A DNA stretch of 64,000 nt from Gammaproteobacteria bacterium (GCA_965215365.1 CBDCDS010000003.1:1344001-1408000); one strand, 5' to 3'. Counted from the stretch's first letter, positions 2 through 62,067 are shown. Translations and numbers: made by a program. The notes: generated from the sequence alone by a model not told the origin.

Positions 2-3000
2 GTGGCCACCTCGAACGGCACGGCGACGGCGGGCAGCGACTACACGGCGACGACGACCACGCTGACCATCCCGGCCGGGAGCACGAGCGTCATCTTCGCG
101 GTGCCGACGACCACCGACAGCACCTCGGAGTCCGCCGAGACGTTCACGGTGACTCTGTCCAACCCCACCGGCGGCGCCACCATCGACCCCGACGCCGGCG
201 TGGGCACGGGCGCCCTGTACGATCCGGGCGGCACGCTCGTCAATGATGATGCCTCTGCCATTACCTACCAGTATGCAGGCGGTGACACCCGCGGCCAGGC
301 CTGGCGGTCGGTGTCTCGCTCTGGCAGCAGCTACAATAATGACGTCCACATCACCCCGAGACCGGGCGCGTACTTTGACTATACGTTTACCGGCACCGGC
401 GTAGACCTTATCTCGGAAACCGACTCCCGCTACGCGGAGGTTGACATCTACCTGGACGGGAACAAAGTGGCGCGCGCATCGCTGGTCAGCGCCAGCCGCG
501 CCGGGAAAGTGCTGGTCTACAGCGTGCGCGGGTTGAGCGCAGGGAGCCATACCATCAAAGGTGTAAGGGTGGGGGTTAGCGTTAACAAGAATTTTGTGGT
601 AGATGGCTTTTTGGTGCATACGAGCGATGCCTTTTTTGCCGATAGGTTAAAGCCCACCGGCTTAACTGCCACGCCGGGCGACAAGCAGGTGACGTTGAGC
701 TGGCTCGATCCGTCCAACAGCGCCATCACCAAGTACCAGTATCGCCAGGGCGCCGGCACGACCGTCGTCTGGGGTGGCTGGACCGACATCGCCAACAGTG
801 ACAACACCACCACCTCGCACACCGTGACGGGCTTAACCAACGGCACGGCCTACAGCTTTGAAGTGCGCGCCGTGGTCGGGACGGCAACCGGCGCCGCCTC
901 AGGTGCCGTGAGCGCGACACCGGCCACCCCCAGCACCCTGCCAGAGCTGTCGATTAACAGCGCGACGGCATTAGAAGGCCGCACGGCAAGTTTTACGGTC
1001 ACCCTGTCACGCGCCCACACCGCCGATGTCACAGTACAGGCGGCCACCTCGAACGGCACGGCCACGGCAGGCAGTGACTACACGGCGAAGACGGCGACAT
1101 TAACCATTGCAACCGGCAGCACCAGCGCCACGTTTGACGTGGTCACCACCGACGATGCGGCGGTGGAAGGCACCGAGACCTTCGAGGCGACCTTGGCTAA
1201 CCCGTCTAAGGCCACGCTCAAAAAAGACGGCGACACCGCCACCGCCACCGTTTACGACGGCGACGGCGGGACGCGCTTCGATGTGCCTCGGAATCACTCG
1301 GACGTCACCCGTGGCGGGGGAAGTTGGACATGGGATTTTGGCCGCAACCCCCCCAAATTTGACAACTACGGTAAAAATGGCTACGTCACCGGAGCTAACG
1401 GCGCCTATCTGGAATACGCCTTTACCGGCACCGGGGTGGACTTTATCTCACAGGTTGGCCCGAACCACGGTAATGTGGACATCCATATTGATGGTACCAA
1501 GGTAGCCACCGTGAACTTGTACCAAAGCGGCAGCGTCACCGGCAAGTACGTGGCCTACAGCGTGCGCGACCTGACCGCCGGGGAACATACCATCCGGGTG
1601 ACCAAGCGGTCTGCTACCTGGCTCATCGTGGATGCTTTTATTGTGTACGGCGCCCCCTTGGACTTCGTCACCTGGCACTTACCCCGTGAGCTGCGCTATG
1701 TGAAGGATACGGCCATCCTGGCCCCGACCCGACTGCCTCGGGTCGGCAACGGCGCGGGCACGGTGACTTATGCCTTAACACCGACACTGCCGACAGGCCT
1801 GCAATGGGACGCTGAGGAGCGCACGATTTCAGGCACCCCCACGGTGAACCAGGCGCGCACGCAATACACCATGACGGCGACCGATGCGATAGGTGGTACC
1901 GAGGTCTTTACCTTCCACCTGACAGTGACTAACAAGGACGATAAGCCGACCTTCGGCAGTGAGACGCAAGCCGACCTGTTACTGGTGAAGGATGCGCTAA
2001 TGACCGCGGTCACACTGCCGGTGGCTACGGGCGGCGATGGCACGCTGACCTATCAGTTATTGCCGTTGAAGTGGAGTAACATGGGCTACAACCAGAACGC
2101 GGACCGGGAGAGCAACCAACCCTTAGACTACGCCGGGGTGGCCAACCTGCCGGCGGGGCTCAGCTTTAATGCCGGCACACGGGTGCTGTCGGGCACACCC
2201 ACTGAGAACTGGACGCGCGCCCTTTATACTTTAGTAGCCACGGACGCCGATGGCGACACGGCGGGTCTGAACTTCCATGTGGCGGTGGCAAACGCGTTAA
2301 CCCCGGCCACCAATTCCAGCACTCTGGAGGTCTGGACGGACGATGCACTCAAGCATGTCAACCGCAATGCCACTAAGCCGAGCTCGCCGTCGACCCGCAT
2401 TGACTTACATGCGGCGCGCAATGAGTACGAGAACGGCCAGATAGTGCTACGCAGTGATGCGGATTTGACCATTACCGAAGTGGCGTTTAGTGACCTCACC
2501 AGCGGCAGCAACACGATTGCCGCCAAGGATAACCTTGACTACCGGTTTGTAGAATACCACTCGCCGGTGATGCCGACCCGGACGACCAAGCTGCTCTACC
2601 CGGCTGCTAATCGTCCTGATCCGTTGTCCAATGCCCGCTCGATTGTGGTGCCGGCGAACGTCACCCAACCCATCTTAGTGACGGCGTATGTCCCCAAGGG
2701 GCAGGCGGCGGGCACTTATACCGGCGAGGTGACGGTGAAGGTCAACACCGCCCAGGGGGACCAGACCAAGACCGTGCCCTTGAGCGTTAAGGTCTATGCG
2801 GTGCAGATTCCCGATGCCAAGGACAGCGAGTTCTTACAGTACAACTGGACGGAGACGAACATGTACTCCGTGCGCAATGATGAGGACATGGGGTTTTCGT
2901 ACTACGGGATTTATAAGTACTCCGATGACTGGTGGGGCTTAATGGGCAACATGGCCGACACCATGTCCAAGCATCGTCAGAACATGACCATTGCCTGGAC

Positions 3001-6000
3001 GGTGGCACTGCTGCGCGACGGCGGCAGTAAGGCCAAGTCCGATGGCACGTATGACTGGCAATGGGGGCTGTTCGATAAGTTCATCGACACTTATAACCAG
3101 GGTGGCATGTCGCATTTCGGTGGTGGGCATTTGTCGTTCCACTGGGAGGGCGGCAAACCGCGCAGTTGGGATGCTGCCCGGCATTTCGAGGTGGCGATGC
3201 TCGCGCCTGACGCGAACGGTGAGACGCGCATCGGCGGTGCCGTGGTGCCGAAGTCCACGTCCGATACCGCCGGCACGCGCGCGAACGCCCGGGATTGGCT
3301 CAATGCTTATCTGCCAGAGCTGGACAAACATATTGCTGCGAAGGGCTTACTCGGCGGTGCCAAGCTGCGTGATAAGTGGTTCCAACATCTTGGCGATGAG
3401 CCGGGCGGCAGCACTGATATCCAACAATGGGCGTATATGGCAGACACGCTCAAGGCCAAGGCGCCCAAGATACGTAATTTAGATGCAGCCCAGACCAGCG
3501 TCGAGGGGCTTTTGCAGGATGCCAATGCGGCCCGGGTGAATGCTTGGAGTCCTTACCTGATCGAGTTTGACAAGCGCAAAACCTTATTTGCCCAACAGCA
3601 ACAAGCCGACAAGCCGGTGTTTGTCTATGTGATGTACACCCCCAGGGACAAGAACGACTATAACCGCCTGTTCAACAACCATCTGGTATCGACTTCCACG
3701 CTGTATTGGTATTACTTCCGCCATAACTTAGACGGCAATCTGCACTGGGCACTGAACGTCTGGTCTATTACCGCGGGAGATGCTTCCAAGGGCGATACCC
3801 ACATCGTCTATCCGGACATCGGCGGGCGCACGCTGCGCTCATCGCTGCGCTATGAAGCCGAGCGTGGCGGGCTGGAGGACTTAGAGCTATTAAAGCTGTA
3901 TAAGAAGACCTCTGCCAGCGCGGCTAATACACTGGCTGAGAAGCTCACCACCACGACCCGCACCAACCACAACAAGGATGTGTCAACGTACCGCACTGTG
4001 CGTGCAGAGTTGCTGAGTGCCCTCACCGCCACCGCCCCCCCGGAGCTGTCGATTAACAACGTGGCAGTGACAGAGGGTGCGGCGGCATATTTTACGGTGA
4101 CCCTGTCGGCGGCCCACACCGCTGACGTCACGGTGCGGGCGGCCACTTCGGACGGCACGGCCACGGCGGGCAGCGACTACACGGCGAAGACGGCCACGCT
4201 GACTATTGACGCCGGCGCTACCAGCGCCACCTTCGAAGTGTTGACGACCGCCGACAGTACTACGGAGTCCTCTGGCGAGACGTTCAAAGTCACCCTGTCC
4301 AATCCCGGCGACATTGGCACCATCAAGTCCGGTGCCGGCGTGGGCACGGCCACCCTGTACGACGCGGGAGGCGTGTTTGTCAATGATGATGATAGTGCTG
4401 TCACATATTTGAATCTTAATCCTTTTTGGAAGGATGCTGACCGCTCCAAGGGGGGATTCAACAACTATGATGATGATATCCGCTCCACTAATGTGCAGGG
4501 CATGTACTTTGAATACACGTTTATCGGCACCGGCGTGGATTTTATCTCAGAGACTAACAAAGACCATGGCGAGGTTGACATCTATATTGACACGGCCAAG
4601 GTGGCGCGTGTGTCGCTGCACAGTGCGACCCGCACCGGCAAGGTGCTGGCCTACAGCATGCGTAGGTTGCCTTTCGGGAAACATACTATCCGGGGGGTGA
4701 AGGTGGGCAGCGACGCCGGCAAGTATTTGGTAGTGGATGGCTTTTTTGTTTATGGGACGCCTAAACCCGCGGGGCTGACCGCGACACCAGGCGACAAGCA
4801 GGTGAAACTCACCTGGGCCGACCCGTCAGACGGTGCCATCACCAAATACCAGGTTCGTCAGGGCACTGGCACGACCGTCGCCTGGGGTGCTTGGGCGGAC
4901 GTTCCCAGCAGCTCGGCCACCACCACCTCGCATACCGTGACCGGCCTGACCAACGGCACGCAATATAGCTTTCAGGTGCGCGCCGTGGACGGGACGGCAA
5001 CCGACGTGGCTTCGCACACCGTGACCGCAACACCGGCAGGCTACGAGCTGTCGATTAACAGCGTGGGAGTGACGGAGGGAGCGGCGGCGTATTTTACGGT
5101 GAGCCTGTCACGCGCCCACACCGCTGACGTCACGGTGCGGGCGGCCACCTCGGCCGGCACGGCCACGGCGGCCAGCGACTACACGGCGACGACGGCCACG
5201 CTGACCCTTGCCAAGGGAGAAACCAGCGCCACCTTCGCGGTGCCGACGACCGCCGATGCTACTGCGGAGGGCAGTGAGACCTTCAAGGTGACCCTGAGTA
5301 ATCCCACCGGTGGCGCCACCATCGAGCGCGGCGGCGGTGTGGGTACGGCCACCCTGTACGATGGCGGCGAGGATGGCGGCGGCATGCTCGTCAATGATGA
5401 TGACAGTGCTATTGACTACCAGAATGGCAGTAGCTCATTCGGCCGTGGGTGGTTTTCTGGTGCTCGCAATCCGAGATACTTCAATAGCTACAATGATGAC
5501 ATTCAAGGCGCCACGAGACCGGGCGCCTACTTTGAATATACGTTTGCCGGCACCGGCGTGGATTTTATCTCGGAAACTAGTAGCACCTACGGGAAGGTTG
5601 ACATCTACCTTGACGAGACCAAGGTAGCGCGCGTGTCGCTGCACAGTGCCACCCTAACCGGCAAGGCGCTGGCCTACAGTGTGCGCGGGTTGCCTTTCGG
5701 GGAATATACCATCAAGGGTGTGAAAGTGGGGAACATCGCCGAGGTGCTGGTGGTAGATGGCTTTTTTGTTTATGGGACGCTCAAGCCCACGGGGCTTACC
5801 GCGGGGGCGGGCGACGGGCAGGTGGTGCTTACCTGGGACAACCCCTCCAACGATGCCATCACCGGCTACCAGTATCGCTGGGGTACGCTCTCGGCCCTCT
5901 CTAGGTCGCATTTTGGGCTCGACTCTTATTTAGAAGCTGTCCGCTGGGGGAATTGGCTGACAATGTCCGGCAGCCTGGACACCACCACGTCACACACGGT

Positions 6001-9000
6001 GCGCTTCCTGACCAACGACACGCAGTACTATTTCCAGGTGCGCGCCGTGGTCGGGGCAGTACCCGGCGCGCCCTCAAATGTCGTATTCGCCAGACCACGG
6101 ACGGCCGGCATGAACTTCATCACCTGGCATCTGCCCCGTGAAATGCGCTATGTGAGGGGTACGCCGATATTGGCGCCAACCCGACTGCCGCGGGTCCAGG
6201 GTGCCACCGGCGCCGTGACTTATGCCTTAACACCGGCACTGCCGACCGGTCTGGAGTGGGACGATGAGGAGCGTACGATTTCAGGCACCCCCGCCGCAGA
6301 TAGGGCGCGTACGCAATACACCATGACGGCGACCGATACCAACGATAAAATCGGCGAATACACCTTCCACCTGACCGTAGCGGCCACCGACAACAAGCCC
6401 AGCTTCGGCACGACGCAGGCCGATTTGCTATTAGTCAAGGACGCGGCCATGACCGCCGTCACACTACCGGCGGCCACCGGCGGCGACGGCACGCTGACCT
6501 ATCAGTTACTGCCGTTGAAGTGGAGTAACCTGGGCTACAACCAGGGAGAACGGGGGAACAACCAACCTCTGGACTACGCCGGTGTGCCCAACCTGCCGGC
6601 GGGTGTGAGCTTCAATGCCAGCACGCGCGAGCTGTCGGGCAGGCCCACGGCGAACTGGACGCGCGCCTTGTACACGTTGGTGGCCACAGATGCCGATGGC
6701 GACACGGCGGGTCTGAACTTCCACGTGGCGGTGGCGAACGCACTGACCCCGGCTACCGGCTCGAGCGCCCTGGAGGTCTGGACGGATGATGCGCTCAACC
6801 ATGTCAACCGCGATGCCACCCGGCCGAACTCGCCGTCCACCCGCATTGACTTACATGCGGTGCGCAATGAGTATGAGAGCGGCCAGATAGTGCTACGCAG
6901 TGATGCGGATTTGACCATCACCGAGGTGGCGTTTAGTGACCTGACCGATGGCAGCAACACGATTGCTAAGACCCACCTTGACTACCGGTTTGTAGAATAC
7001 CACTCGCCGGTGATGCCGACCCGGGGAGATACGCTACTTTATCCGGCCTCTAATCGTCCCGACCCCTTGTCCAACGCCCGTTCGATTGTGGTGCCGGCGA
7101 ACGACACCCAACCGATACTGGTGACGGTGTATGTCCCCAAGGGACAGGCGGCGGGCACTTACGCCGGCACGGTGATGGTGAAGGTCAACACGGCGCAGGG
7201 GGTTAAGACTAAAACCGTCCCGCTGAGCGTGAAGGTCTATGCCGTGGAGATCCCCGATGCCAAGGACAGCGAGTTCAAGCAGTACAACTGGACCGAGACC
7301 AACATGTTCTCCATCCGCAACGAGGAGGACATGGGCTTTTCGTACTACGGGATTGACAAGTACTCTGATGATTGGTGGGAATTGATGGAGAACATGGCCG
7401 ATACCATGTCGACGTATCGCCAGAACATGGCGGTATCCTGGACGGTGGGTCTGCTGCGCGACGGCGGCAGCAAGGCCAATGTTGACGGCACGTATGAGTG
7501 GGACTGGCGGCTGTTCGACAAGTACATCGACACCTATAACCAGGGTGGCATGAGCCACTTCGGCGGCGGGCATTTATCGTTCCACTGGAACGGGAGGCCG
7601 GGGAGTTTCAGTGGTAAGCATGACTTCCATGTGATGCAGTTGTCTCGCGACTCAGATGGCGAGACGCGTCTTAGCGGCGCATTGGTGCCGACCTCGGCGA
7701 CCGATGCCACTACCACGCGCAAGGCCGCCGCGGACTGGTTGGATGCCTACTTGCCGGAATTGGACAAACAAGTCAAGGCCAAGACCTTGGTCGGCGGCGT
7801 CAAGCTGCGCGACCAATGGATCCAGCACATGGGGGATGAGGCGGGTGCAGGTGCACAATCCCAACAATGGGCTTATATGGCGGACAAGGTCCAATTTCAT
7901 GCACCTGGTATGCTGACCATGGATGCAGCATATAGTCTTGGTTTGCACGACCATGCAACGAAAGTAAAAGCCTGGAGTCCTTGGATCAACATTTTTGATG
8001 AATACAAGGATTTCTATATTGAACAACAAGCCGCCAACAAGCCGGTGTTTGCTTACTACATGTGGTATCCCCGACATCCGTTAATGAACCGCATGTTCGC
8101 TAACCATTTGATCGCGACCTCAATGATCTACTGGTATTACTTCCGCCACAATCTGGCCGGCAATCTGCACTGGGCGCTGAACGTGTGGTCTCTCCCGTTG
8201 ACAGAAACCAAAGACGACAACGGAATCGGTGCCGAAGGCGATACCCACATCGTCTATCCGGACGTCGGTGGGCGCACTCTGAGGTCATCGCTGCGCTATG
8301 AAGCTGAGCGTAACGGGCTGGAGGACCTGGAGATCTTGAAGCGGTACAAGGTGGGGGCACCGAGCGCGGCCAATACGCTGGCCGACGGACTCATAAACCC
8401 CAACGGCGTCACCGCGGTCCCAAGTTCCGTCAACACCCTTGCCGAATACAACACAAATGTATCAACGTACCGCACCGTGCGTGCCGAGTTGCTGGAGGCG
8501 GTGTCTCCGATGCTCACAGGGCTGACCGTGACACCGGGCGACGGGCAGGTGACGCTGAGCTGGGATGATCCTGGCGATGCCAGCATTGCTCGCTACCAGT
8601 TCGACACGCGCTGCTCCTCGGGCCTCTGGGGCGGCTGGCGGAACGTCCCCGCCTCCAGGGCCACCACTACCACCGCCACGATAAGCGGCTTGACTAACGA
8701 CACGCAGTGCGACTTCCGCATCCGCGCCAGAAGAGGGGGGGAGCGCGGCCCGCCCTCGGCTGTCGTGAGCGCCACGCCGATAGAGTCCCTGCCCTTCGTC
8801 ACCTGGCACCTGCCCCCTGAGCTGCGCTACGTGAAGGGTGAGGAAATCCTGGCGCCGGTGCGCCTGCCGCGGGCCGACACCACGCAGCGGGTGATTTACC
8901 TGCTGAGGGGTCGGTTTTCGGGCACCTTTGCCGGGGACGATTTGCCTGATGGGCTGATTTTCGATGCCGAACAACGCACCATTTCCGGTACGTCGACGAA

Positions 9001-48157: not shown

Positions 48158-48169
48158 CCGACATGATGG

Positions 48170-49714: not shown

Positions 49715-49743
49715 ACCCGCGCGGGCTTGAGCTTTCGGTAGTT

Positions 49744-51398: not shown

Positions 51399-51422
51399 GG
51401 GGCGTAAAAATCTCGTGGAGAA

Positions 51423-51486
51423 CCAGCCCGCAGGCAGAACCAATCCGGCGCGATGTTCGCATCACTGGGTGAGAGCTGCGGGCTGG
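51423..51486. repeat. Stem-loop between gspG and gspH containing REP-like element copy 3
   Basis: ccagcccgcag (51423) pairs with ctgcgggctgg (51476-51486). The loop contains ttcgcatcactgggtgagagctgcgggct, similar to copies 1 and 2. Confidence 0.7.
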
Positions 51487-51500
51487 GGCGGGGACGGATA

Positions 51501-54127: not shown

Positions 54128-55419
54128 ACCGGCTGTTTATACGGCTTAATTCGTCGCCACCCGATGACGCTGAGCAACGAGTGGATTGGGCAGTGCTGAC
54201 CGCCGCCGGGGATAAACTCGACGCCGGCTTCGGCGCCACCCTGGGCCGTATGGATACAGTCGGGGTCGCGGCAGAGGATATGGAAACTGTGATCATTGCG
54301 CCGGGTGAGGATATCTTGTTCCGGAAGCTGGCAGTTCCCGCTGCACAAAAACGCTATCTCAAAGAGATAGTGCCGTATCTTATGGAAGACGCGATGGCCG
54401 ACACGTTGGAATCCATGCACATTGTCAATGGCAAGGAGCATGAGGGGAAATACCCCGTTATGGCGGTACGGCACTCCCGTATCCGAGACTGGATGGAGCG
54501 CTTGCGACAACATGACATTACGCCCGACTGCATGGTCGCGGATACTTATGTTATGTCGTTATTTCCAGATAAAGTGTGCGTTTTGTTCGATGAGAGATAT
54601 AGTATCATCAGCACTGATACGATTGCGTTAAAAACCGATACGAGTAATATTACGTTGCTGTTGAGGAGTTATTTAAGCGAGCAGGGAAATGACGCCGCGC
54701 CGGTCAGCAGTATTGCACTGCTGGCCACGGCGGCGGCCCGTGGCGATGCCAGGATCGACGCGGAGATAGCAGACGCGATAAAGTACCTGGACACAAGAGG
54801 CATTGCCAGTACCGTGGAGCAGATTGACAATAGCTTTGACTATCTCTGTCAGCGCTTAAATGCTGTGTTTGAGGCGGGGCAGGGCGGTCAGCTCGCCAAT
54901 CTGATAGGCGCGCCCTACCAGGGCCATGTCATCAGGCGCCAACGTTTCAACTGGCGTGCGCTGGCGCTGGTCCTGTTGCTCTGTATGGGGTTGAAAGTCA
55001 TGACGGATATCGCCACAGGACTGTATCTGGAGCGCCAGATTGCGCAGCTGGATGAAAAGGTCATCAGTCTGTACCGCGACCTGTTTCCACAGGATAGCAA
55101 AATCGTCAATGTAAAAGTTCAGATGGAAAATCACCTCAAACAGAGCGCCGCGTCGGCTTCGCAGGTGGAGTTCGTCACGTTGGTCGGTATTATCAGCAAG
55201 CAGCTCAGCATGATAGGGCAGCCGGCGCGGATACAGATTCAAAATCTGCGTTATGACAGTCAGCAAAATGCACTGTGGCTGGATATACAGGCCAAAGATA
55301 TTCAACTCCTCGATCAACTTGAGCGATATTTGACAGGTGAGGTCGAGGATGTGAAAATTTTATCGGTGAGCGATGAAGAACAATGGATAAACGGACGATT
55401 TCGTATCACCAGCAGGTAA
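54124..55419 (+). CDS. gspL: Type II secretion protein GspL
   Basis: LFIRL, 'VPYLMED.MA...ESMH', a single TM segment after 'NWRALAL' and 'YRDLFPQDSKIVN...QM'. Confidence 0.92.
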   Translation: MNRLFIRLNSSPPDDAEQRVDWAVLTAAGDKLDAGFGATLGRMDTVGVAAEDMETVIIAPGEDILFRKLAVPAAQKRYLKEIVPYLMEDAMADTLESMHIVNGKEHEGKYPVMAVRHSRIRDWMERLRQHDITPDCMVADTYVMSLFPDKVCVLFDERYSIISTDTIALKTDTSNITLLLRSYLSEQGNDAAPVSSIALLATAAARGDARIDAEIADAIKYLDTRGIASTVEQIDNSFDYLCQRLNAVFEAGQGGQLANLIGAPYQGHVIRRQRFNWRALALVLLLCMGLKVMTDIATGLYLERQIAQLDEKVISLYRDLFPQDSKIVNVKVQMENHLKQSAASASQVEFVTLVGIISKQLSMIGQPARIQIQNLRYDSQQNALWLDIQAKDIQLLDQLERYLTGEVEDVKILSVSDEEQWINGRFRITSR

Positions 55420-55427
55420 CACCCGAT

Positions 55428-55928
55428 ATGTTCAGGCAGCGCTACAGACAATTGTTTGAGACCTTCAAGCAACTGCCGTTGAGGATGCGACGGCTGCTTG
55501 CGGTGGCCGTGCTGTTACCGGCTGTGCTGGGTTTTATCTTTGGCCTGCTGCTTCCGGCACACCGCTTTGCCGATACAACGGCCTTGGAATTTCGTGAAAT
55601 TCATGACTTGTTCGCCTGGATGCAAGCCAACGCAAGCAAGGTCAGCGCCCTGCACCGGTCAGCCCCGGCTGAGGCAACGGCGACGGAAGATACCATCCTC
55701 TCAACCCTTGCAGACAGCGCCCAAAGCCAGGGTCTCAGCCTCAAGCGATTTGTGCCTCAGGAAAACGCTGAGCTGCGCGTCTGGCTGGAAGATGTGTCTT
55801 TTGACAAGTTCATCTTGTGGCTTGACAGCTTGAGCCGTGCTCACAATATCAGCGTCAGGCAGATCACTATCTCTAGGCAAGACCTGCCCGGACTGGTCAA
55901 TGCCGTTATCGTATTTGCGCTGAATTAA
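55428..55928 (+). CDS. gspM: Type II secretion protein GspM
   Basis: TM segment after 'RMRRLL', 'WMQ', 'LRVWLEDVSFDKFILWL' and 'PGLVNA'. Confidence 0.9.
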   Translation: MFRQRYRQLFETFKQLPLRMRRLLAVAVLLPAVLGFIFGLLLPAHRFADTTALEFREIHDLFAWMQANASKVSALHRSAPAEATATEDTILSTLADSAQSQGLSLKRFVPQENAELRVWLEDVSFDKFILWLDSLSRAHNISVRQITISRQDLPGLVNAVIVFALN

Positions 55929-56081: not shown

Positions 56082-57062
56082 ATGCGGTTGCCCTATCCTG
56101 ATGAGAGAGTTAAAGACACCGTTTTTGTTGGCATGGACGGTGGCGGGACCAATACCGGAGTCGTTGTCATCGACTGTGATGGTAAACAGGTCTATGAGAC
56201 AGTCGGTGGTCCCGCTAACATCGCCCTGTCAGGCGTGGATGCAACATTTGGCAGCATCAAGCGGATATTGGACGAAGTGCTCGGTGAGGTTAACCGGTTT
56301 GAACAATCTGTGGCAGGCATTGTGCTGGGGTTGGCCGGGATCAGCAAGGGTGAGAGTCAATTAAGTGGCGCCCTGCTGGATAAACTGAATGCCCTGAACA
56401 TCACCGGCAATATCCGTTTGGTCAACGACGCGCATATTGCCTGGTATGGAGTAGCCAGAGGTAAGCCGGCGATCGCGTTAATCTCCGGCACCGGTTCCTC
56501 GGCGTATGCCGTTGATGCTAAGGACAACATCATTGTTAAAGGTGGTCTGGGGTATATCTTATCGGATGAAGGCAGCGGCTACCATATCGGGTTAATGGGT
56601 ATCCGCAGCGCGATACGAGCGTCATTACGCATTGACACGGAGACGGCGCTGGCCTCGAAACTCATGGAGGTCTTTGCGCTGCGAAGTATTGATGAAGCGC
56701 CATACCTCATTAAAGACCATGCTCAGATCGCGGCATTTGCTCGCCATGTTTATGAGGCATCATTGTCTGGCGACAAAGTCGCTGGTCATATCATTAGCGA
56801 AGCGGCGGACGAGCTCGCGCGTCTGGTAGAGGCAACCTGGCGTGACGGAGACTTCGGCAACAGACAAGTCAAAGTGGGCGCGTTTGGCAGCTGTCTGGAC
56901 AAAATGGCCACATTAAGAAGCGCCTTGTCTGACCGGTTGCAACTTGTCAGTCACAATCTGGTATTGTCTGCTCCTGTTTATGCGCCGGCGCGAGCCGCAT
57001 CCGAGTTGGCAAGAAATACCTGTATGCAGACCGGAAGCCCGGCGGATATCGGCGACGCCTAG
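56082..57062 (+). CDS. BadF/BadG/BcrA/BcrD-family sugar kinase (N-acetylglucosamine/glucosamine kinase-like)
   Basis: GMDGGGTNT, GPAN, GLAG, NDA, ISGTGS and GG.GYILSDEGSGYHIG motifs. Confidence 0.9.
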   Translation: MRLPYPDERVKDTVFVGMDGGGTNTGVVVIDCDGKQVYETVGGPANIALSGVDATFGSIKRILDEVLGEVNRFEQSVAGIVLGLAGISKGESQLSGALLDKLNALNITGNIRLVNDAHIAWYGVARGKPAIALISGTGSSAYAVDAKDNIIVKGGLGYILSDEGSGYHIGLMGIRSAIRASLRIDTETALASKLMEVFALRSIDEAPYLIKDHAQIAAFARHVYEASLSGDKVAGHIISEAADELARLVEATWRDGDFGNRQVKVGAFGSCLDKMATLRSALSDRLQLVSHNLVLSAPVYAPARAASELARNTCMQTGSPADIGDA

Positions 57063-57109: not shown

Positions 57110-57955
57110 TTGTTTGACAATAATAATATCAAGTCCTACGTTCCGGATAATGTGCCATTTGCTGAGGCGCTGTCGCGCACCACGCATTTGGCTGTTGCCG
57201 CGCATCCCGATGATATCGAGATCATCGGTTTCCACGGGATCATCGAGTGCTATCAGGTTAGTGACCGGTGGTTTACTGGCATTGTGGTCACCAATGGCTC
57301 TGGTTCTCCTCGTAATGAATCGTTCCGGGAGTGTTCTGACGCGGACATGGCAGCGATTCGTGTAGAAGAACAAATTCAGGCAGCTCAGTTGGGTGATTAT
57401 TCGGCGGTATTGCAGTTGGGTCTTTACAGCGATGCAGTTAAAGACCGGATTAACCCGCAGTTGGTAGAGTATCTGTCCCATCAACTGCAGTTGGCGCAGG
57501 CGCATACGGTATATCTGCACAACCCGGCCGATCGTCATGATACGCATGTGGGTGTCTGCATCCACGCGCTTGAGGCATTACGCTCCCTGCCCAAGGCGCT
57601 CCAGCCCACACATGTTTATGGTATTGAAGTATGGCGTGCTCTGGACTGGTTGCCCGAGCAGTACCGGGTACGGCTGGACCTCAGTGGTCACGCTGAGCTG
57701 TTCAACAGCCTGATTGGTGTATTCCAGTCCCAAATCAGCGCCGGTAAGCGTCTTGATCTGGCCTTGCCGGGGCGTCTGTCTGCCAACGCAACCTTCGATC
57801 GATTCCATGCAGTTGATCAGTTTTCAGCGCTGACTCTGGCGCTGGACTTATCTGAGCTGGTGCAAAATGAAAATATTGGATACAGTGAGTTCATGGAGTC
57901 AGTACTTTGCGATTTTACCACTGAGGTCGTCGGGAAACTCGACCGGTACCAGTGA
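57110..57955 (+). CDS. PIG-L/LmbE-family de-N-acetylase
   Basis: AHPDDIE metal-binding motif, T.GSGS, R.EEQ..AA and H.P.DRH.TH. TTG start. Confidence 0.9.
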   Translation: MFDNNNIKSYVPDNVPFAEALSRTTHLAVAAHPDDIEIIGFHGIIECYQVSDRWFTGIVVTNGSGSPRNESFRECSDADMAAIRVEEQIQAAQLGDYSAVLQLGLYSDAVKDRINPQLVEYLSHQLQLAQAHTVYLHNPADRHDTHVGVCIHALEALRSLPKALQPTHVYGIEVWRALDWLPEQYRVRLDLSGHAELFNSLIGVFQSQISAGKRLDLALPGRLSANATFDRFHAVDQFSALTLALDLSELVQNENIGYSEFMESVLCDFTTEVVGKLDRYQ

Positions 57956-57962
57956 GTACGTG

Positions 57963-58754
57963 ATGGAAGTTGTCATCTTAAAAGACGCCAATGAGGTGGC
58001 CGAAGAAGGCGCACGGCGGGTCTGCTCGCTGATCGGGCAAAGTCAAAATGCGGTATTGGGGTTGGCCACCGGGAGTACGCCCATCGCCATGTATAAAAAA
58101 TTAATCGCCTCCTGCCGGAAAGGTGAGATCAGCTTCAGCAAGGTCACTACGTTTAATCTGGATGAATATCTGGGATTAGCGCCGGAGCACCCGCAAAGTT
58201 ATCGCAGCTTCATGCACCGTGAGCTGTTTGAGCATATTGATATTGACATCAGGAATACTCATTTACCGACCTGTCGGGAAGGAGAGAATCCCAAGACTGT
58301 GTGTCGCTTGTACGAAGAGAAAATCAAATCTGTCGGTGGCGTTGACATACAGGTCTTGGGTATTGGCAGCAACGGACATATCGGCTTTAACGAACCGATC
58401 TCGAGTTTGGCGTCCCGTACGCGAGTCAAAACGTTGTCGGAGCATACTGTTGCAGACAACAGTCGGCTGTTTGAACCGAACGAATATCAACCGGCTCTTG
58501 CGATTACCATGGGTGTTGCAACCATCATGGAAGCGCAGCGGATTTTACTGTTGGCAACCGGGCAGAATAAAGCGCAGGCAGTCAGGGGCATGATCGAAGG
58601 TTCGGTGACTTCCCGGTGTCCGGCGTCGGTGCTGCAATTACACGAGCGGGCAACGATTCTGCTTGATGAAGCCGCCAGTTCTGAATTGGAGTTGCAGGAC
58701 TACTACAAGTGGAGCCATAAACAGAATACGGGGTTGCTTTCAAAGCTGCCGTGA
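57963..58754 (+). CDS. nagB: Glucosamine-6-phosphate deaminase
   Basis: VLGLATGSTP, TFNLDEY, HPQSY, LGIGSNGHIGFNEP and AITMG. ATG at 57963. Confidence 0.96.
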   Translation: MEVVILKDANEVAEEGARRVCSLIGQSQNAVLGLATGSTPIAMYKKLIASCRKGEISFSKVTTFNLDEYLGLAPEHPQSYRSFMHRELFEHIDIDIRNTHLPTCREGENPKTVCRLYEEKIKSVGGVDIQVLGIGSNGHIGFNEPISSLASRTRVKTLSEHTVADNSRLFEPNEYQPALAITMGVATIMEAQRILLLATGQNKAQAVRGMIEGSVTSRCPASVLQLHERATILLDEAASSELELQDYYKWSHKQNTGLLSKLP

Positions 58755-58807: not shown

Positions 58808-60139
58808 CTACCATAGATCACTCCACTTTCTTAAGTTGTGTCCTTTTACCGCGTAAAAGAGAATTAACAGATAGCAGGGCAGCATGATCCAATAAGCACG
58901 TTGCAAGTCCTGTAAATATTCTGCCATGGCGCCGTAAATCAGCGGAAGCACGGCCCCACCCCCAATGCCCATAATCAATAACGCCGAACCCGTGTGGATC
59001 TGTTTTTTGTTTAAGCCAGACAATGCAAGTGGCCATATAACCGGCCACACCATGGCGTTGGACAGCCCAAACAGGGCCACATACAAAACGACATCGGGAA
59101 TAGGGGGAATGGGGGAGGCCTCAGCAGAGCCGAATAATGCGTTCCATATTATGCTCGACTCGGCGCTGGCATTGACTAACAGCAACGACAAACCTATACC
59201 CAGCATTGCGGAAATCATCAATGCTGTTTTTTGGCTTAACCAACGAGGAATCGCAAGTATGCCAAGAATATACCCTACTACCATGAAGCCCATGGTATAG
59301 GAGGTCAACTCGCTATAATTGCTTACCCCGGTTTCTTTCCCAAACAAACCGATGGTATCGCCGGCGATAACCTCTGCGCCCACATAAAAAAACAAGGTAA
59401 CAACGCCAAGAACCAGTTGCGGGTGATGCAGAATACCAGCCTTTCCGTCCCCTGCGTCTGCTGCTTCCTGCTCCTCGTTCGCCGGTTCCGGCAAGGGCGA
59501 GAGCCATACATAAACAGCCAGCGCCAATAACAACCCGGCCAACATTAAATACGGCTCGATGAGCCGGGCGGATAATGCTTGCAGTTCAATGAGCCGCTGC
59601 GCCGGCTCTAACAGGGCAAGGCGCGCCTCATCAAATTGTGATATATCGGAGAAGATCAGCGCAGTAAACGCCAACGGGGCGATCACGCCGGCGCCTTTAT
59701 TCAGAACCCCCATGATACTGATACGCACTGCGGCCGTCTCACGCGGGCCAATCATCACAATGTAGGGGTTAACGGCGGTTTGCAGAATAGTCAGCCCGGT
59801 TCCCAAGATAAATAATGCCGCCAGAAAAATACTGTACATCCGCAATAATGCCGCCGGAATGAACATCAGGCTCCCCACTGCCATGATGAACAAGCCCAGG
59901 ATCAGACCGTTTTTATAGCCGGTGCGAAACAGGATCGCCGACATGGGTAAAGCCGTCAGAGTATAAGTGATATAAAATGCCAGAGTGACCAGATAGGCCT
60001 GCACTTGATTGAGTTCACAGGCAATCTGCAGGAATGGAATCAACGAACCGTTCAGCCAGGTAATAAAACCAAACATAAAAAACAGCCCGCCGATGAGCAG
60101 CAGGGGTACTAATCCGGATATATGATCTGTTTTGTTCAT
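58808..60139 (-). CDS. MFS sugar transporter, FucP/GluP family (NagP-like)
   Basis: FFMFGFITWLNGSLIPF, LQTAVNPY, YVGAEV, WP.IWPLAL and MGIGGGA. About 12 TM segments. Confidence 0.9.
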   Translation of the reverse strand: MNKTDHISGLVPLLLIGGLFFMFGFITWLNGSLIPFLQIACELNQVQAYLVTLAFYITYTLTALPMSAILFRTGYKNGLILGLFIMAVGSLMFIPAALLRMYSIFLAALFILGTGLTILQTAVNPYIVMIGPRETAAVRISIMGVLNKGAGVIAPLAFTALIFSDISQFDEARLALLEPAQRLIELQALSARLIEPYLMLAGLLLALAVYVWLSPLPEPANEEQEAADAGDGKAGILHHPQLVLGVVTLFFYVGAEVIAGDTIGLFGKETGVSNYSELTSYTMGFMVVGYILGILAIPRWLSQKTALMISAMLGIGLSLLLVNASAESSIIWNALFGSAEASPIPPIPDVVLYVALFGLSNAMVWPVIWPLALSGLNKKQIHTGSALLIMGIGGGAVLPLIYGAMAEYLQDLQRAYWIMLPCYLLILFYAVKGHNLRKWSDLW

Positions 60140-61428
60140 TAGCGGCTAACCTGTTTCCAGCCGTTGGCGGCGTAGTAACATACCATGAGGAAACCCGTCA
60201 TGGGAACCAGCAGAGATAACTGGATATTGCCGCTCAGGTCGGCGATATAACCCATAACCGGTGGCAACACGGCGCCGCCGGCGATGGCCATGATCATGAG
60301 TGAGGACCCCAGTTTGGTAAGGTGGCCCAAATCCCTCACCCCCAGAGCAAACACCGTCGGCCACATGATGGACATGAACAGAGTGGTCAACCACAAGGCC
60401 CAGATCGCCAGCCAGCCGGAGGTCGTGATGGCAACGCCCAGTAAGCCGATGTTGACGACCGCATAGCTCAGCAGCAGGTGCTGCGGCGCCACTCTCTGCA
60501 TGATAAGACCACCGGAAAAACGCCCGATCATCAACGCCAGGAAGCCGTAGGCAAGTAATTTGCCGGCGGCCTTCTCCGTGGTTTCCGGACTTAAGTCTTT
60601 GGTGAAGTCGATAAAGAACGACCAGATACAGACCTGCGCCCCCACGTAGAAGAACTGAGTCACGGCAGCCAGTACCAGGTGCCGGTGCCGGAACAGGTCG
60701 CGGATGCGACCCTTGTGAGCTGCCGTTGCATCTCCCTCGGCTCCGGTAAGTGGCGGGAACCTAGAGCAGAAAATCAACACCATGATAACGGCTACGCAGG
60801 CGGCCAGCCACAGGTAGGGTTGCTGTACCGTCTTCGCCTCCGCCGCGCGCCAGGCGTCCAGTTCAGCCGCAGACAGCGCGGCAATCTCGGTGGGCGTATA
60901 TTCGATGCCGGAGAAGATGAAGATACTGCCCAGGAACGGCCCGACAAAGGCGCCGAGGCCGTAGAAGGACTGGGCGATATTCAGCCTGGCAGGCCCGGTG
61001 CGCGGGTCCCCCATGACTGATACGTAGGGATTCGCAGCCGTCTCCAGAAAAGCCAGACCGAAGGCGATGATGTACAGCGCCGCCAGGAACAAGCCGAAGG
61101 CGCGCGCCTCCGCCGCAGGGTAAAACATCAGCGCCCCACCGCAGTACAGCGTCAGGCCCACCAGGATGCCGTTCTTGTAACCGAACCGCTTCATGGCCAG
61201 ACCGGCGGGGATGGCGCCGAAAAAATAACCGAAATAGAACGCGGTCTGGATAAGACCTGCCTGGCCGCGGGACAGTTCCAGCGCCTTCTGGAACTGGCGG
61301 ATGAGAATGTCGTTCAACTGTGCGGCTAGCGCCCAGGAAAAAAACAATGTTGTCACCAGTAAAAACGGCAACAGATATTTCTTTTCCAGCAGGACTGGCT
61401 TTTTGCCGTCGGCCGTTATTTCACTCAT
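60139..61428 (-). CDS. fucP: L-fucose:H+ symporter-family MFS permease
   Basis: LFFSW...LNDILI.QF, FLETAANPY, RLN.AQSF, YVGAQV.IWS, FMSIMWPT.F and MAIAGGA. Confidence 0.8.
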   Translation of the reverse strand: MSEITADGKKPVLLEKKYLLPFLLVTTLFFSWALAAQLNDILIRQFQKALELSRGQAGLIQTAFYFGYFFGAIPAGLAMKRFGYKNGILVGLTLYCGGALMFYPAAEARAFGLFLAALYIIAFGLAFLETAANPYVSVMGDPRTGPARLNIAQSFYGLGAFVGPFLGSIFIFSGIEYTPTEIAALSAAELDAWRAAEAKTVQQPYLWLAACVAVIMVLIFCSRFPPLTGAEGDATAAHKGRIRDLFRHRHLVLAAVTQFFYVGAQVCIWSFFIDFTKDLSPETTEKAAGKLLAYGFLALMIGRFSGGLIMQRVAPQHLLLSYAVVNIGLLGVAITTSGWLAIWALWLTTLFMSIMWPTVFALGVRDLGHLTKLGSSLMIMAIAGGAVLPPVMGYIADLSGNIQLSLLVPMTGFLMVCYYAANGWKQVSR

Positions 61429-61626: not shown

Positions 61627-62067
61627 ATGTTAAAAGATATCGATCCTTTACTCGGGCCGGAACTGCTTGGCGCACTCAGGGGGATGGGGCATGGTGATGA
61701 TATCGCCATCGTCGATGCCAACTTTCCTGCCGTCAGTCACGCGCTAAATCTGCTCCGTCTTGACGGAGTGAGTGCCACCGCGGCGCTACAGGCGGTGCTT
61801 TCCGTTATGCCCTTAGATACCTTCGTCAGTTGTCCGGTACATACCATGGAAGTGGTCGACACCCCGGCTGCCACGCCACCCGTGGTGATGGAATTCCATA
61901 GTATTGTCAAGGCCGCTACGCCAGCTCCGGTAGCCATTGGTGCCTTGGAACGCTTTGCCTTCTACGCGCGCGTCAAAGAGGCCTTTGTTGTGGTCGTGAC
62001 CGGCGAGCGGCGCTTGTACGGCAATATCCTGCTGAAAAAGGGTATTATTCGCGCCGATAATCTGTAG
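61627..62067 (+). CDS. fucU: RbsD/FucU-family sugar mutarotase (L-fucose mutarotase-like)
   Basis: MLK.IDP.L.PELL..L..MGHGD.I.I.DANFP, LERFAFY and TGE.R.YGNI.LKKG. Confidence 0.85.
   Translation: MLKDIDPLLGPELLGALRGMGHGDDIAIVDANFPAVSHALNLLRLDGVSATAALQAVLSVMPLDTFVSCPVHTMEVVDTPAATPPVVMEFHSIVKAATPAPVAIGALERFAFYARVKEAFVVVVTGERRLYGNILLKKGIIRADNL

Follow-up and report, generated by a model that had tools for sequence, protein, structure and literature searches.

A 1.94-MDa protein with nine GH123 modules beside a type II secretion system in a putative glycan-utilization locus of a marine gammaproteobacterium

It appears, with a probability of about one half, that the region studied here is a single glycan-utilization super-locus of ~93 kb (C3:~1312600-1406067), organized around a conserved module of a giant gene, a PPC-RTX gene and gspC-M, with export of the giant protein by the type II secretion system (T2SS) as the conjectural part of this reading. 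The giant gene of this uncultured marine gammaproteobacterium (genome G000) is located at C3:1330310-1385803 on the plus strand, takes up 2.0% of the genome and encodes a protein of 18,497 aa (1.94 MDa, pI 5.1), which to our knowledge is among the longest bacterial proteins. The open frame extends from C3:1330280, with the first ATG at C3:1330310, to a stop at position 41803 of the window, that is, the whole 64,000-nucleotide stretch of DNA that was analyzed and whose numbering is used below wherever no prefix is given. The window edge cuts the gene, which starts 13.7 kb upstream. From the N- to the C-terminus, the protein consists of a signal peptide, a GH36/GH31-like head, nine GH123/DUF4091 modules, a stalk of 17 Ig-like units and a Calx-beta C-terminus; the hydrophobic, signal-like (Sec-type) N-terminal segment, the head, DUF7402 and F5/8-type-C domains and GH123 modules 1-3 are all encoded upstream of the window. 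The gene inventory given by a first-pass annotation of the window (giant, RTX gene, gspC-M, kinase, PIG-L protein, NagB, transporters and FucU) was recovered in full, each gene in its place, by Pfam and NCBIfam (Table 1).

Table 1. Features of the giant gene and its downstream neighbors, in window coordinates.
Feature	Position	Strand	Evidence
Giant gene, 3' 41.8 kb (in-window ORF 2-41803)	1..41803	+	Pfam scans, frame analysis
GH123 module 4 (GH123_N2 + catalytic domain, QHLGDE)	2366..3895	+	Pfam, motif
GH123 module 5 (QHMGDE)	6812..8341	+	Pfam, motif
GH123 module 6 (QHLGDE)	9521..11035	+	Pfam, motif
GH123 module 7 (QHMGDE)	13208..14737	+	Pfam, motif
GH123 module 8 (QHLGDE)	16373..17890	+	Pfam, motif
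GH123 module 9 (QHLGDE)	19754..21271	+	Pfam, motif
Linker: five fn3, one He_PIG and one Calx-beta domain	22226..25135	+	Pfam
Stalk: 17 tandem 840-bp (280-aa) units, 69% G+C	25739..39968	+	blastn, Pfam
Conserved C-terminal 340 aa: two Calx-beta, third beta domain, tail	40781..41803	+	Pfam, comparison
PPC-domain and RTX-repeat protein, 1051 aa	41883..45038	+	Pfam
gspC-D-E-F-G-H-I-J-K-L-M (gspC 45100, gspD 45608, gspE 48170, gspG 50955, gspM end 55928)	45100..55928	+	Pfam
BadF/BadG-family sugar kinase, weakly NagK_SO3507-like	56082..57062	+	Pfam, NCBIfam
PIG-L/LmbE-family de-N-acetylase	57110..57955	+	Pfam
NagB glucosamine-6-phosphate deaminase, above TIGR00502 cut-off	57867..58754	+	NCBIfam
NagP-like MFS HexNAc transporter, 489 bits	58808..60139	-	NCBIfam
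FucP L-fucose:H+ symporter, above TIGR00885 cut-off	60139..61428	-	NCBIfam
FucU/RbsD-family L-fucose mutarotase	61627..62067	+	Pfam, NCBIfam

The giant frame contains nine matches to PF13320 (GH123_cat) with the N-terminal domain PF22680, six in the window and three upstream, all scoring 89-112 bits against a cut-off of 23.1. The catalytic DE pair is intact in the nine modules, within a motif QH[LMI][GA]DE that aligns with HLADE of 8k2j, and the modules are 64-99% identical to one another. The best solved relative of module 7 is this same structure, NgaDssm, an endo/exo beta-N-acetylgalactosaminidase (E 8e-23). According to the accessible part of the paper on this enzyme, DE is the catalytic motif and is conserved in 94% of DUF4091 sequences, and GH123 enzymes act mostly in the exo mode (Sumida et al., 10.1101/2023.07.28.550916). 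From the intact motif, the nine modules are predicted to be beta-HexNAc-ases. Known GH123/DUF4091 enzymes, of which NgaDssm is the nearest, share with them the arrangement of GH123_N2 before a (beta/alpha)8 catalytic domain that carries the DE pair; they are, however, single-module proteins of about 540-580 aa, while the giant carries nine modules on one chain, with low identity to the solved enzymes and a specificity that is predicted only. Among 5.8 billion proteins, searched in the 894-2550 aa length band only, the GH123 module gave 6 matches, and the best longer relative is 42% identical; given that domain lists hide copy number, multi-GH123 proteins may exist elsewhere. In the literature ranked by title, abstract and term counts, another chain in which one glycoside-hydrolase family occurs nine times, next to a tenth glycosidase-like domain, was not found, and we know of no other in which nine such copies are joined by a tenth, unclassified one.

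This tenth domain is the head (aa 40-770). Pfam gave no match within aa 1-766 of the giant, and the profile of the head family matched PDB sequences at chance level only (E 0.38). Its predicted structure (pLDDT 88.7) shows a beta-sandwich at the N-terminus and then a (beta/alpha)8 barrel, as in clan GH-D-like alpha-glycosidases. With VIA, the model aligned to 8x1b, the GH36 FpGalactosaminidase (Z 18.2, rmsd 5.7 over 468 aligned residues), with GH36, GH31 and GH27 chains next, and with Foldseek the top ranks were taken by GH101, GH129 and GH36. The acidic residues E442, D520 and E574 are conserved in the alignment of the family. The family counts 377 representatives among 1.84 billion proteins, has no Pfam model and is a candidate new glycoside hydrolase family. 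Removal of alpha-linked Gal/GalNAc may be a further activity of the head.

The link between the giant and the T2SS was explored in 23 genomes of the genus, G000 included. A head-type giant is found in four of them (G000, G006, G003 and G019), and the window-type GspL in the same four (co-occurrence of 4 of 4 versus 0 of 19). The order giant-RTX-gspC-M is kept in G000, G006 and G003, with different flanks, and in G019 aa 38-512 of the giant are joined to aa 214-324 of gspK, followed by gspL and gspM, which corresponds to one deletion across the giant, the RTX gene and gspC-J. The link that had been proposed from the window in this way gains real support from the comparison with relatives. From this comparison, the head, the stalk unit, the C-terminus (the last 340 aa being 72% identical to G006 and 54% to G003), the RTX partner and the T2SS form a conserved chassis, and the middle enzymatic payload is species-specific. 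Indeed, the giant of G003 contains, in place of GH123, FG-GAP repeats and a DUF5703_N domain whose match to the GH95 catalytic domain is below threshold (23.9 bits, cut-off 27). Both the GH123 payload and the kinase, PIG-L, nagB, MFS and fucU genes are absent from the loci of the relatives and specific to the G000 species. For this reason, the proposal of a fixed, self-contained unit does not hold, and the expected co-occurrence of the giant with gsp and nagB/PIG-L genes is seen across the 23 genomes for gsp and the head-type giant but does not extend, in the relatives' loci, to the GH123 payload or the nag genes. The surroundings of the block are glycan genes in each of the four genomes, namely a TonB-dependent receptor (TBDR), an SSF symporter and a fucosidase-like or melibiase-like glycoside hydrolase.

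The distribution of the block is patchy, given that RpoB of G003 is 84% identical to that of G000 and farther from it than RpoB of 16 of the 17 block-less genus genomes with one full-length match (82-92%, with G010 at 82%). The four block-bearing genomes probably represent only two independent lineages, G000/G006 and G003/G019, so that inheritance, or movement of the block as an island, could account for the adjacency. In G006 there is also another T2SS, of the type common in the genus, which makes the window-type T2SS accessory in that genome, and a second giant-RTX copy behind which 40 aa of gspM remain. Neither gsp nor RTX genes lie beside the second giant copy of G003 or beside the broken paralog of G000. 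Outside the genus, the T2SS loci of G025, G026, G032 and G030 have no RTX or giant homolog within 5-17 kb, on short contigs that make this weak evidence.

All T2SS core genes from gspC to gspM are present, each with its own Pfam family except GspH, which has the N_methyl motif only. The short GspC (157 aa) consists of the HR domain only, GspD has an acidic repeat tail of ~200 aa, and the prepilin peptidase (GspO/PilD) is represented by one Peptidase_A24 gene outside the cluster (C3:491381-491710). A second secretin locus was considered as a T2SS and rejected, given that Secretin_N_2 and MshEN identify it as an MSHA-type pilus. A sole T2SS with unrelated neighbors had been named in advance as an argument against the link; gspC-M is the sole canonical T2SS of G000 and, being so, might serve many substrates, but its neighbors are not unrelated to it, and the argument applies only in part.

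The PPC-RTX protein has 14 RTX repeat stretches and no N-terminal signal peptide, and the genome encodes a PrtD-type ABC transporter (567.7 bits, above cut-off) and an HlyD protein (363 bits). It is likely, as judged from these features, a substrate of a type I secretion system (T1SS). Its gene is not specific to this locus; PPC-RTX genes recur 3' of at least eight large secreted proteins in G000, and the 7 other pair sites are not next to gsp genes.

These observations bear on the export of the giant, for which we infer a role of the T2SS. A T2SS substrate close to 1.9 MDa is not known to us. The folding of such substrates is generally placed in the periplasm, a compartment that could hardly contain a protein of this size. 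It is conceivable, if rather unlikely, that the giant degrades glycans and leaves the cell independently of the T2SS, either by Sec and an outer-membrane step or by a T1SS together with the RTX partner, the adjacency to gsp genes being due to shared inheritance or an island. This would agree with the recurrence of large-protein/PPC-RTX pairs, only one of them by gsp genes, with the PrtD-type transporter and HlyD protein, with the absence of gsp genes near the second G003 copy and near the G000 paralog, and with the possible reduction of the four genomes to two lineages. It fits poorly with the Sec-type N-terminus of the giant and its lack of RTX repeats or HemolysinCabind in the Pfam scans, both unlike T1SS substrates. 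The C-terminal RTX repeats and secretion signal, without a Sec signal, that characterize LapA-type T1SS adhesins do not describe this protein, and no ABC or MFP genes adjoin its gene. The strict co-occurrence, the block order kept while both flanks change, the single deletion in G019 and the retention of the window-type T2SS by G006 despite its second one also argue against such a route.

Downstream of gspM, the genes follow with gaps which, as elsewhere in the locus, are 12-153 nt or small overlaps, and the NagP-like and FucP genes converge on nagB and diverge from fucU. The true start of NagB is probably near 57963, given that the family match begins at residue 33. NagA was not found in G000 (97.6% complete genome), and by its position and family the PIG-L protein probably stands in for it, a possible non-orthologous replacement in amino-sugar catabolism. 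The catabolic genes are GlcNAc-type in look (NagP, NagK-like, NagB), while the nearest characterized hydrolases are GalNAc-specific. The gap of 153 bp between gspM and the kinase is AT-rich, which together with the absence of the nag genes from the relatives' loci indicates that these genes are probably a separate transcription unit. Scans of 41700-61690 gave 9 promoter-like sites versus 11.4 expected and 23 terminator-like sites versus 16.5 expected, and are uninformative on co-transcription; no plus-strand terminator was found in the giant-RTX, RTX-gspC and gspM-kinase gaps, and no regulator was recognized among the scanned ORFs of the locus.

The first-pass annotation had noted no TonB receptor in the window, which is correct there but does not apply to the locus. 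A TBDR (C3:1323813-1326347) is followed by a sulfatase, a GH29 fucosidase and the giant, at 0.6-6.5 kb upstream of the start of the latter and outside the window, and the block has TBDRs at its flanks in G006, G003 and G019 as well. Also upstream are genes of an oxidative fucose pathway (AKR, amidohydrolase_2, UxaA-like dehydratase, SDR and FAH hydrolase), the fucose and amino-sugar routes being complete within the region. Judged by its genes, the locus is a proteobacterial TBDR-type glycan locus, with the TBDR by CAZymes and inner-membrane transporters, and not a receptor-less one. The interpretation as a glycan-harvesting system agrees with these genes, given the GH123 modules with intact DE, the CBM-like domains, the transporters and the amino-sugar and fucose catabolism.

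In the super-locus that we propose, the N-terminal signal peptide would direct the giant through the inner membrane by the Sec route, and the co-inherited T2SS would then take it out of the periplasm or mount it on the cell surface, where about 50 Ig-like stalk domains and the Calx-beta C-terminus may keep it at the cell. The head and the nine GH123 modules, every module having CBM-like and Ig-like domains of its own, would remove beta-GalNAc/HexNAc, whether terminal or internal, from a host or matrix glycan that carries fucose and sulfate, and the neighboring sulfatase and GH29 fucosidase would complete the trimming. Oligosaccharides would be imported through the outer membrane by the TBDR, and monosaccharides through the inner membrane by NagP and FucP. 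The amino sugar would reach glycolysis by the kinase, the PIG-L deacetylase and NagB, and fucose would be burnt by FucU with the upstream oxidative pathway. The substrate, the surface anchoring and a co-regulation of the locus are presumptive parts of this scheme.

An unlikely interpretation is that the giant is a host-interaction adhesin or glycocalyx remodeler, whose Ig-like, Calx-beta, fn3 and discoidin domains would attach to host matrix while the hexosaminidase modules modify host glycans, for example for attachment or as a protection against being eaten, with the catabolism genes as opportunistic neighbors. Adhesion domains of eukaryote-like type (He_PIG, Calx-beta, fn3 and F5/8 type C) are indeed numerous in the protein, other large G000 proteins carry such domains without a catalytic domain, and the nag genes beside the block are not conserved. 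Nonetheless, ten catalytic-type domains with conserved motifs would be costly for mere binding, and the position of the block among TBDRs, sugar symporters and further glycosidases in four genomes, together with the complete fucose and amino-sugar routes, speaks against it. A periplasmic location, in which the giant would be an exo-glycosidase array acting on TBDR-imported oligosaccharides like the periplasmic enzymes of PULs and carbohydrate utilization (CUT) loci, is improbable. It would account for the Sec signal, for the TBDR directly upstream, for the mostly exo action ascribed to GH123 enzymes in the accessible part of the source given above, and for the fact that neither a hydrophobic sorting signal nor a recognizable outer-membrane anchor was found in the giant. 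An Ig-like stalk encoded by ~14 kb and many CBM-like domains would, however, be of little sense in the narrow periplasm, and the co-inheritance with the T2SS would be left unexplained. The width of this compartment is about 25 nm.

The glycan-utilization super-locus can be compared with several known systems. Giant RTX adhesins exported by T1SS (LapA, MpIBP and SiiE) are megadalton proteins with long Ig-like extender repeats and calcium-binding domains, and the giant shares these properties; in contrast to them, it starts with a Sec-type signal peptide and lacks RTX repeats, which are found instead on the neighboring protein, and its gene has no adjacent ABC/MFP genes. Cellulosomes also join many catalytic and binding modules at the cell surface, but in the giant these are covalently linked in one polypeptide, with no match to cohesin or dockerin in any Pfam scan. 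The concept of TBDR-based CUT loci is said to go back to Blanvillain in 2007. Proteobacterial CUT loci and the Nag pathway of the Shewanella/Xanthomonas type (NagP, NagK and NagB) bring together a TBDR, secreted glycosidases, an MFS transporter and catabolism, as G000 does, and differ from it by the 1.9-MDa multi-catalytic hydrolase, the whole T2SS inside the locus and PIG-L where NagA is expected. In Saccharophagus degradans, also a marine gammaproteobacterial polysaccharide degrader, the accessible text of Weiner et al. (2008, PMC2386152) describes acidic secreted megaproteins of up to 1.6 MDa with calcium-binding and cadherin-like domains, and carbohydrases with type II secretion signals. 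There, the megaproteins are binding proteins and the carbohydrases are separate and smaller, whereas the acidic G000 giant fuses both functions and lies in a conserved T2SS block.

The first-pass annotation knew of no described system with this layout, but a precedent exists, so far for Omnitrophota only. The accessible parts of two Omnitrophota preprints (West-Roberts et al. 2023, bioRxiv 10.1101/2023.11.21.568195; 10.64898/2026.06.07.730766) describe giant genes that lie next to T2SS-like loci and to genes for the import of carbohydrates. Common to these and G000 is a very long secreted protein with carbohydrate-degrading and adhesion domains, encoded beside a conserved secretion locus that includes gspD/E/F homologs and close to genes for sugar import. 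As far as those parts of the preprints go, G000 differs in belonging to the Gammaproteobacteria, in having a canonical, complete gspC-M downstream of the giant, in its payload of nine GH123 modules, in the PPC-RTX gene between giant and gsp, in its TBDR (a TBDR/sus architecture being absent from the collection of the 2026 preprint) and in the proposed role, which is glycan foraging here and predation in Omnitrophota. The idea that a T2SS handles giants was previously based on gene neighborhoods in these uncultured bacteria, and a giant-RTX-gsp block that members of one genus acquire, retain or lose as a whole is a concrete case that bears on T2SS moving megadalton beads-on-a-string proteins. 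We tentatively extend this to a possible accessory T2SS dedicated to both exporting and mounting a megadalton "enzyme rod", with PPC-RTX as a calcium-dependent anchor or scaffold and a cargo swapped between species. If this were true, T2SS-type machines would, with the Omnitrophota cases, handle string-like proteins of 13,000-18,000 aa, far beyond the current picture of T2SS substrates. A constant chassis with a species-specific payload also suggests a natural enzyme-display rod system.

That the giant is an artefact of repeat mis-assembly or a decaying pseudogene is hardly credible: although 12 of the 17 stalk units do not differ at all (100% identity), so that their number, taken from this assembly alone, could be wrong, and an insertion interrupts the G000 paralog, the 18,507 codons of the frame contain no stop (over 55.5 kb, not a chance product), open orthologs of 13,381 and 13,995 aa occur in two other complete genomes, the nine GH123 modules differ by 1-36% and are for this reason not collapsed copies, and the 3' end and the junctions are the same in contigs assembled from other runs. 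In public runs of three studies, one perhaps the window's own source, contigs bridge the junction gspM-kinase-PIG-L-nagB-MFS, and the giant-RTX junction is bridged by contigs of X5 only.

Within the stalk, Tandem Repeats Finder, with a longest period of 500 bp, reported nothing, and the 840-bp units came from blastn. An antisense ORF at 25511-39217 (4568 aa) was rejected as a gene, being a shadow of the G+C-rich repeat. Each unit is made of three Ig-like segments (He_PIG-like, Big-like and Big_13-like), and the AF2 model of one unit (pLDDT 63.9), while not proof of this, is all-beta with three blocks and compatible with three Ig-like domains.

The plus-strand frame that is open from window position 2 and stops at 41803 extends upstream of the window, being open in the source genome (G000; 2.73 Mb in three contigs, 57.9% G+C, 97.6% complete) from C3:1330280. 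Read from its first ATG at C3:1330310, it encodes a giant protein of 18,497 residues without internal stops (1.94 MDa, pI 5.1), and this single gene makes up 2.0% of the genome. The giant gene and the gene cluster described in the first-pass annotation are confirmed, as are the genes listed there, with the correction that the window (C3:1344001-1408000) holds just the final three quarters of the giant gene. The domain order was established from Pfam scans and from HMMs built from the giant's own segments. The N-terminus starts MMYRTAGFAHRP and continues with a 20-residue hydrophobic stretch, with neither a cysteine lipobox nor a twin arginine; no hydrophobic C-terminal sorting signal was found, and Pfam scans returned no RTX repeats, cohesin or dockerin in the giant. 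The stalk has a G+C content of 69%, and 12 of its 17 units are mutually 100% identical, the remaining ones being 81-97% identical. One unit, modelled with AF2 at a pLDDT of only 63.9, shows three all-beta blocks, consistent with its matches to He_PIG and Big_13. A 4568-aa antisense ORF (window 25511-39217, minus strand) was rejected as a gene, being a shadow frame of the G+C-rich stalk repeat.

Features of the giant gene, its surroundings and the paired PPC-RTX genes of the source genome (positions prefixed C3 refer to the contig)
Feature	Location	Strand	Remark
Head	giant aa ~40-770	+	
DUF7402 and F5/8-type-C domains	up to giant aa ~1434	+	Pfam/own-segment HMMs
Nine modules	giant aa 1435-11654	+	each [fn3 / Calx-beta / CE2_N-like]-He_PIG-He_PIG-GH123_N2-GH123_cat
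Five fn3 domains	giant, between nine modules and stalk	+	Pfam/own-segment HMMs
Stalk	window 25739-39968	+	17 tandem units, 840 bp (280 aa) each
Giant C-terminus		+	two Calx-beta, third beta domain, short tail ending PLGNF
PPC+RTX protein	downstream of giant	+	1051 aa, without signal peptide
gspC-M	downstream of PPC+RTX gene	+	Pfam
BadF/BadG kinase	downstream of gspM	+	weakly NagK_SO3507-like
PIG-L deacetylase	window 57110-57955	+	between sugar kinase and NagB
NagB	downstream of PIG-L	+	297.9 bits vs cut-off 236.9
NagP-like transporter	downstream of nagB	-	489 bits
FucP	downstream of NagP-like gene	-	371 bits vs cut-off 280.4
FucU	last of downstream genes		
UxaA-like dehydratase, SDR, FAH hydrolase	upstream of giant, outside window		
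Amidohydrolase_2, aldo/keto reductase	upstream of giant, outside window		
Two AAA_22 proteins	upstream of giant, outside window		multi-copy family
Second FAH-like protein, aldehyde dehydrogenase	upstream of giant, outside window		
TonB-dependent receptor (845 aa), sulfatase, GH29 fucosidase	upstream of giant, outside window		
Large secreted protein then PPC+RTX	C3:45356-51286	-	
Large secreted protein then PPC+RTX	C3:387277-393726	+	
Large secreted protein then PPC+RTX	C3:850827-862466	+	
Large secreted protein then PPC+RTX	C3:1564207-1575285	+	
Large secreted protein then PPC+RTX	C3:1937905-1949250	+	
Large secreted protein then PPC+RTX	C3:2374616-2380972	-	
Large secreted protein then PPC+RTX	C3:2610952-2620623	-	

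The motif QH[LMI][GA]DE is intact in each of the nine GH123 catalytic domains, and the accessible part of the NgaDssm preprint identifies DE as the motif responsible for catalysis in DUF4091 enzymes (10.1101/2023.07.28.550916). The nine domains form three sequence types (M1/4/6/8, M5/7 and M2/M3/M9) with identities of 64-99%, which means that they are not collapsed copies. For module 7, the best solved relative is NgaDssm (8k2j, E 8.2e-23), described in the same accessible text as a dual endo/exo beta-N-acetylgalactosaminidase that also accepts GalNAc-4-sulfate (10.1101/2023.07.28.550916). The head has no match in the Pfam scan. A search of 1.84 billion cluster representatives places 377 of them in its family (E <= 0.001). 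Many of these stand alone, with lengths of 770-920 aa, and their match begins at residues ~38-50, in agreement with a cleaved signal peptide. The AF2 model of the head, built from a 40-sequence alignment, has a pLDDT of 88.7 and a pTM of 0.90. Foldseek places GH101, GH129 and GH36 enzymes on top (E ~1e-11, TM 0.35-0.44), and VIA-align gives the GH36 enzyme FpGalactosaminidase (8x1b; Z 18.2, rmsd 5.7, 468 aligned), followed by GH36, GH31 and GH27 chains. Given these structural matches, the head is predicted to have an alpha-glycosidase-like fold, outside any assigned family.

The first-pass annotation had noted no TonB receptor in the window; one is in fact encoded upstream of the giant, just beyond the window edge. 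A sulfatase and a GH29 fucosidase accompany this receptor. At the level of sequence, the locus looks like one of the TBDR type, serving the use of a glycan that carries fucose, sulfate and HexNAc. We take the genes for a reductase, a lactonase, a dehydratase, an SDR and a FAH hydrolase to be an oxidative L-fucose route of the Xanthomonas type. No match to NagA (TIGR00221) was found anywhere in the 97.6%-complete genome, and for this reason the PIG-L enzyme is likely the deacetylase of the amino-sugar route, in what may be a non-orthologous replacement. The evidence supports a glycan-harvesting locus as the probable nature of the region, although the catabolic genes look GlcNAc-type and the nearest characterised enzymes cut GalNAc. 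Of the glycan-foraging interpretation put forward earlier, the harvesting locus is upheld and the link between the giant and the T2SS gains support on comparative grounds, while secretion, anchoring, substrate and co-regulation are parts that we infer.

That the giant, the RTX protein and the T2SS would form a functional unit has moderate support, owing to their co-occurrence, the order kept amid changing flanks, a co-deletion, and the retention of this T2SS where a second one is present. The synteny on which the proposal had been made to depend was found in two other genomes of the genus, G006 (RpoB 98% and GspE 90% identical to the source genome) and G003 (84% and 77%), where the order giant-RTX-gspC-M is kept with the RTX gene directly after the giant orthologue. 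The orthologues are open frames of 13,995 aa in G006, wrapping around from the end of its single contig to the start, and 13,381 aa in G003, and have in common with the giant the signal peptide and head (74% identity in G006, 50-51% in G003), the stalk unit (51-59% and 46-53%) and the last 340 aa (72% and 54%). The middle of the protein consists in G006 of fn3, Calx-beta, CE2_N, He_PIG and Big_12 domains, with no recognised catalytic module, and in G003 of DUF5703_N, with a GH95-catalytic match that stays below threshold (23.9 bits versus a cut-off of 27), together with FG-GAP repeats and an extended Calx-beta array. GH123 domains occur in two of the 22 other genomes of the genus and are of the stand-alone type, as at C3:108066-112787 in the source genome.

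Across the 23 genomes of the genus, the head is present in four (G000, G006, G003 and G019), exactly those with the window-type GspL. In G019, only giant residues 38-512 are left and run straight into gspK residues 214-324, with gspL and gspM after them; a single deletion therefore took everything else of the giant together with the RTX gene and gspC-J. This genome has no GspL besides the copy in the remnant locus. The distribution of the block is patchy, since 16 of 17 block-lacking genomes are nearer to the source genome by RpoB than G003 is (range 82-92%, with G010 at 82%); the 17 are those with a single full-length RpoB match, two with partial or split matches and one without a match being excluded. 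Weighing against a functional unit, the four block-bearing genomes probably represent two lineages. The C-terminal domain of the giant was looked for by a pattern search of the genome collection, which reaches close relatives only, and was found in no further species representative: 4 of the 88 matches to the pattern were confirmed, corresponding to two loci each in G006 and G003. Behind the second copy in G006 come an RTX gene and what is left of gspM (40 aa); the second copy in G003 has neither. Four T2SS loci that belong to other families of the class showed no homologue of the giant or of the RTX protein in the flanks covered.

Upstream of the giant, G000 and G006 have the fucose genes in common. 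The upstream flank of G006 is without the ALDH-TBDR-sulfatase-GH29 stretch, and its gspM is followed by a fucosidase-like/CBM protein, a TBDR, an SSF symporter and a GHL6 protein. In G003 and G019, a TBDR-SSF-melibiase-like GH set lies directly upstream of the giant. The catabolic genes are not a fixed part of the system as had been suggested, given that the kinase/PIG-L/nagB/MFS/fucU set adjoins the block only in the source genome. The junction between gspM and the kinase, an AT-rich gap of 153 bp, is real, because it is bridged by public-run contigs of three studies, one of which may be the window's own source; in two of the three, the contigs cover PIG-L, nagB and the first of the MFS genes as well.

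The gsp cluster had been considered as a possible sole housekeeping T2SS. With a single GspL match, gspC-M is the only canonical T2SS of the source genome, which counts against a functional unit; in G006, which has both GspL types, the window type is accessory. GspL-family genes occur in 13 of the 23 genus genomes. The source genome has three secretins, the second of which sits in an MSHA-type pilus locus and was rejected as a second T2SS, and one prepilin peptidase, encoded outside the gsp cluster. GspD carries ~200 extra acidic tandem-repeat residues after the secretin domain (window 47570-48157), with ADDSAASRPAPDVADSV-type units nested inside a longer repeat, and is 849 aa long versus 736 aa in G006 and 654 aa in G003. 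GspC (window 45100-45573) is only 157 aa long, as are its orthologues in G006 and G003; besides a membrane segment it has the HR (T2SSC) domain, but neither PDZ nor coiled-coil.

Homologues of the N-terminal 380 aa of the RTX protein are found at 13 other places in the source genome. Of the 14 PPC-RTX genes, the window's included, at least 8 come straight after a large ORF (1,976-18,497 aa) or overlap it by 9-10 nt; each of these ORFs has a signal-peptide-like start. The seven further large partners measure 1,976-3,879 aa, the longest having fn3, Big_12, Calx-beta and He_PIG domains and no catalytic domain. The pair is a recurrent two-gene cassette, and because of this genome-wide arrangement the RTX protein is a general companion of large secreted proteins and not a T2SS component. 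These other pairs are not beside gsp genes, a further point against the giant, RTX protein and T2SS being a functional unit. A PrtD-type ABC transporter gene is split between C2:16023-17426 (contig end) and C1:1-1050 (contig start), so contigs C2 and C1 probably join; with the HlyD protein that follows at C1:1536-2795, it is the predicted T1SS of the organism.

We know of no T2SS substrate of the giant's size, which likewise counts against the proposed unit. In the literature found by full-text search, as far as the accessible text goes, only two Omnitrophota preprints link giant proteins to type II secretion, with giant genes that adjoin T2SS/T4-like loci and also lie near glycoside hydrolases or carbohydrate import genes (10.1101/2023.11.21.568195; 10.64898/2026.06.07.730766). 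Saccharophagus degradans is described, in the accessible portion of the source, as having secreted megaproteins of up to 1.6 MDa, its carbohydrases with type II signals being separate proteins (PMC2386152). Titles and abstracts of the DUF4091/GH123 literature, among the matches listed, contain no multi-GH123 protein. The kinds that the locus joins are known ones, namely TBDR-type glycan loci, secreted proteins of megadalton size and giant genes beside T2SS-like loci; the architecture of the giant is striking, and the hypothesis is testable.

Several minor observations concern the surroundings. A second GH123 locus (C3:108066-117227) consists of stand-alone genes, one with an in-frame TAG inside the match, and an adjoining 1411-aa protein resembles TBDRs of relatives. 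The AAA_22/AAA_16 family (~440 aa), which may be a mobile-element gene, has at least 14 copies in C3 with 35-79% identity (L009:2805-5518, in a C3 subregion, and at least 12 other places); a tandem pair lies inside the fucose cluster, where G006 instead has an FMN-dependent dehydrogenase. At the far border of this cluster is a GmrSD-type restriction endonuclease gene (L026:1576-3285 = C3:1310576-1312285, minus strand). A paralog of the giant (L011, C3:1680001-1699900) has a 4151-aa frame with two GH123 modules and a 98% identical head, and its C-terminal piece is a separate 817-aa ORF (95% identical); the paralog is split by an insertion of ~3.3 kb, which carries a broken AAA_22 gene and one that resembles phage Mu F. 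A short hairpin motif, CGCATCAC..GTGAGATATGCG, is found at 41819-41846 after the giant stop, at 45040-45069 after the RTX stop and at 51459-51480 at the gspH start. At the latter two, the sites covered, contig depth jumps 4- to 16-fold, and public-run contig joints connect 45068 with 51425.
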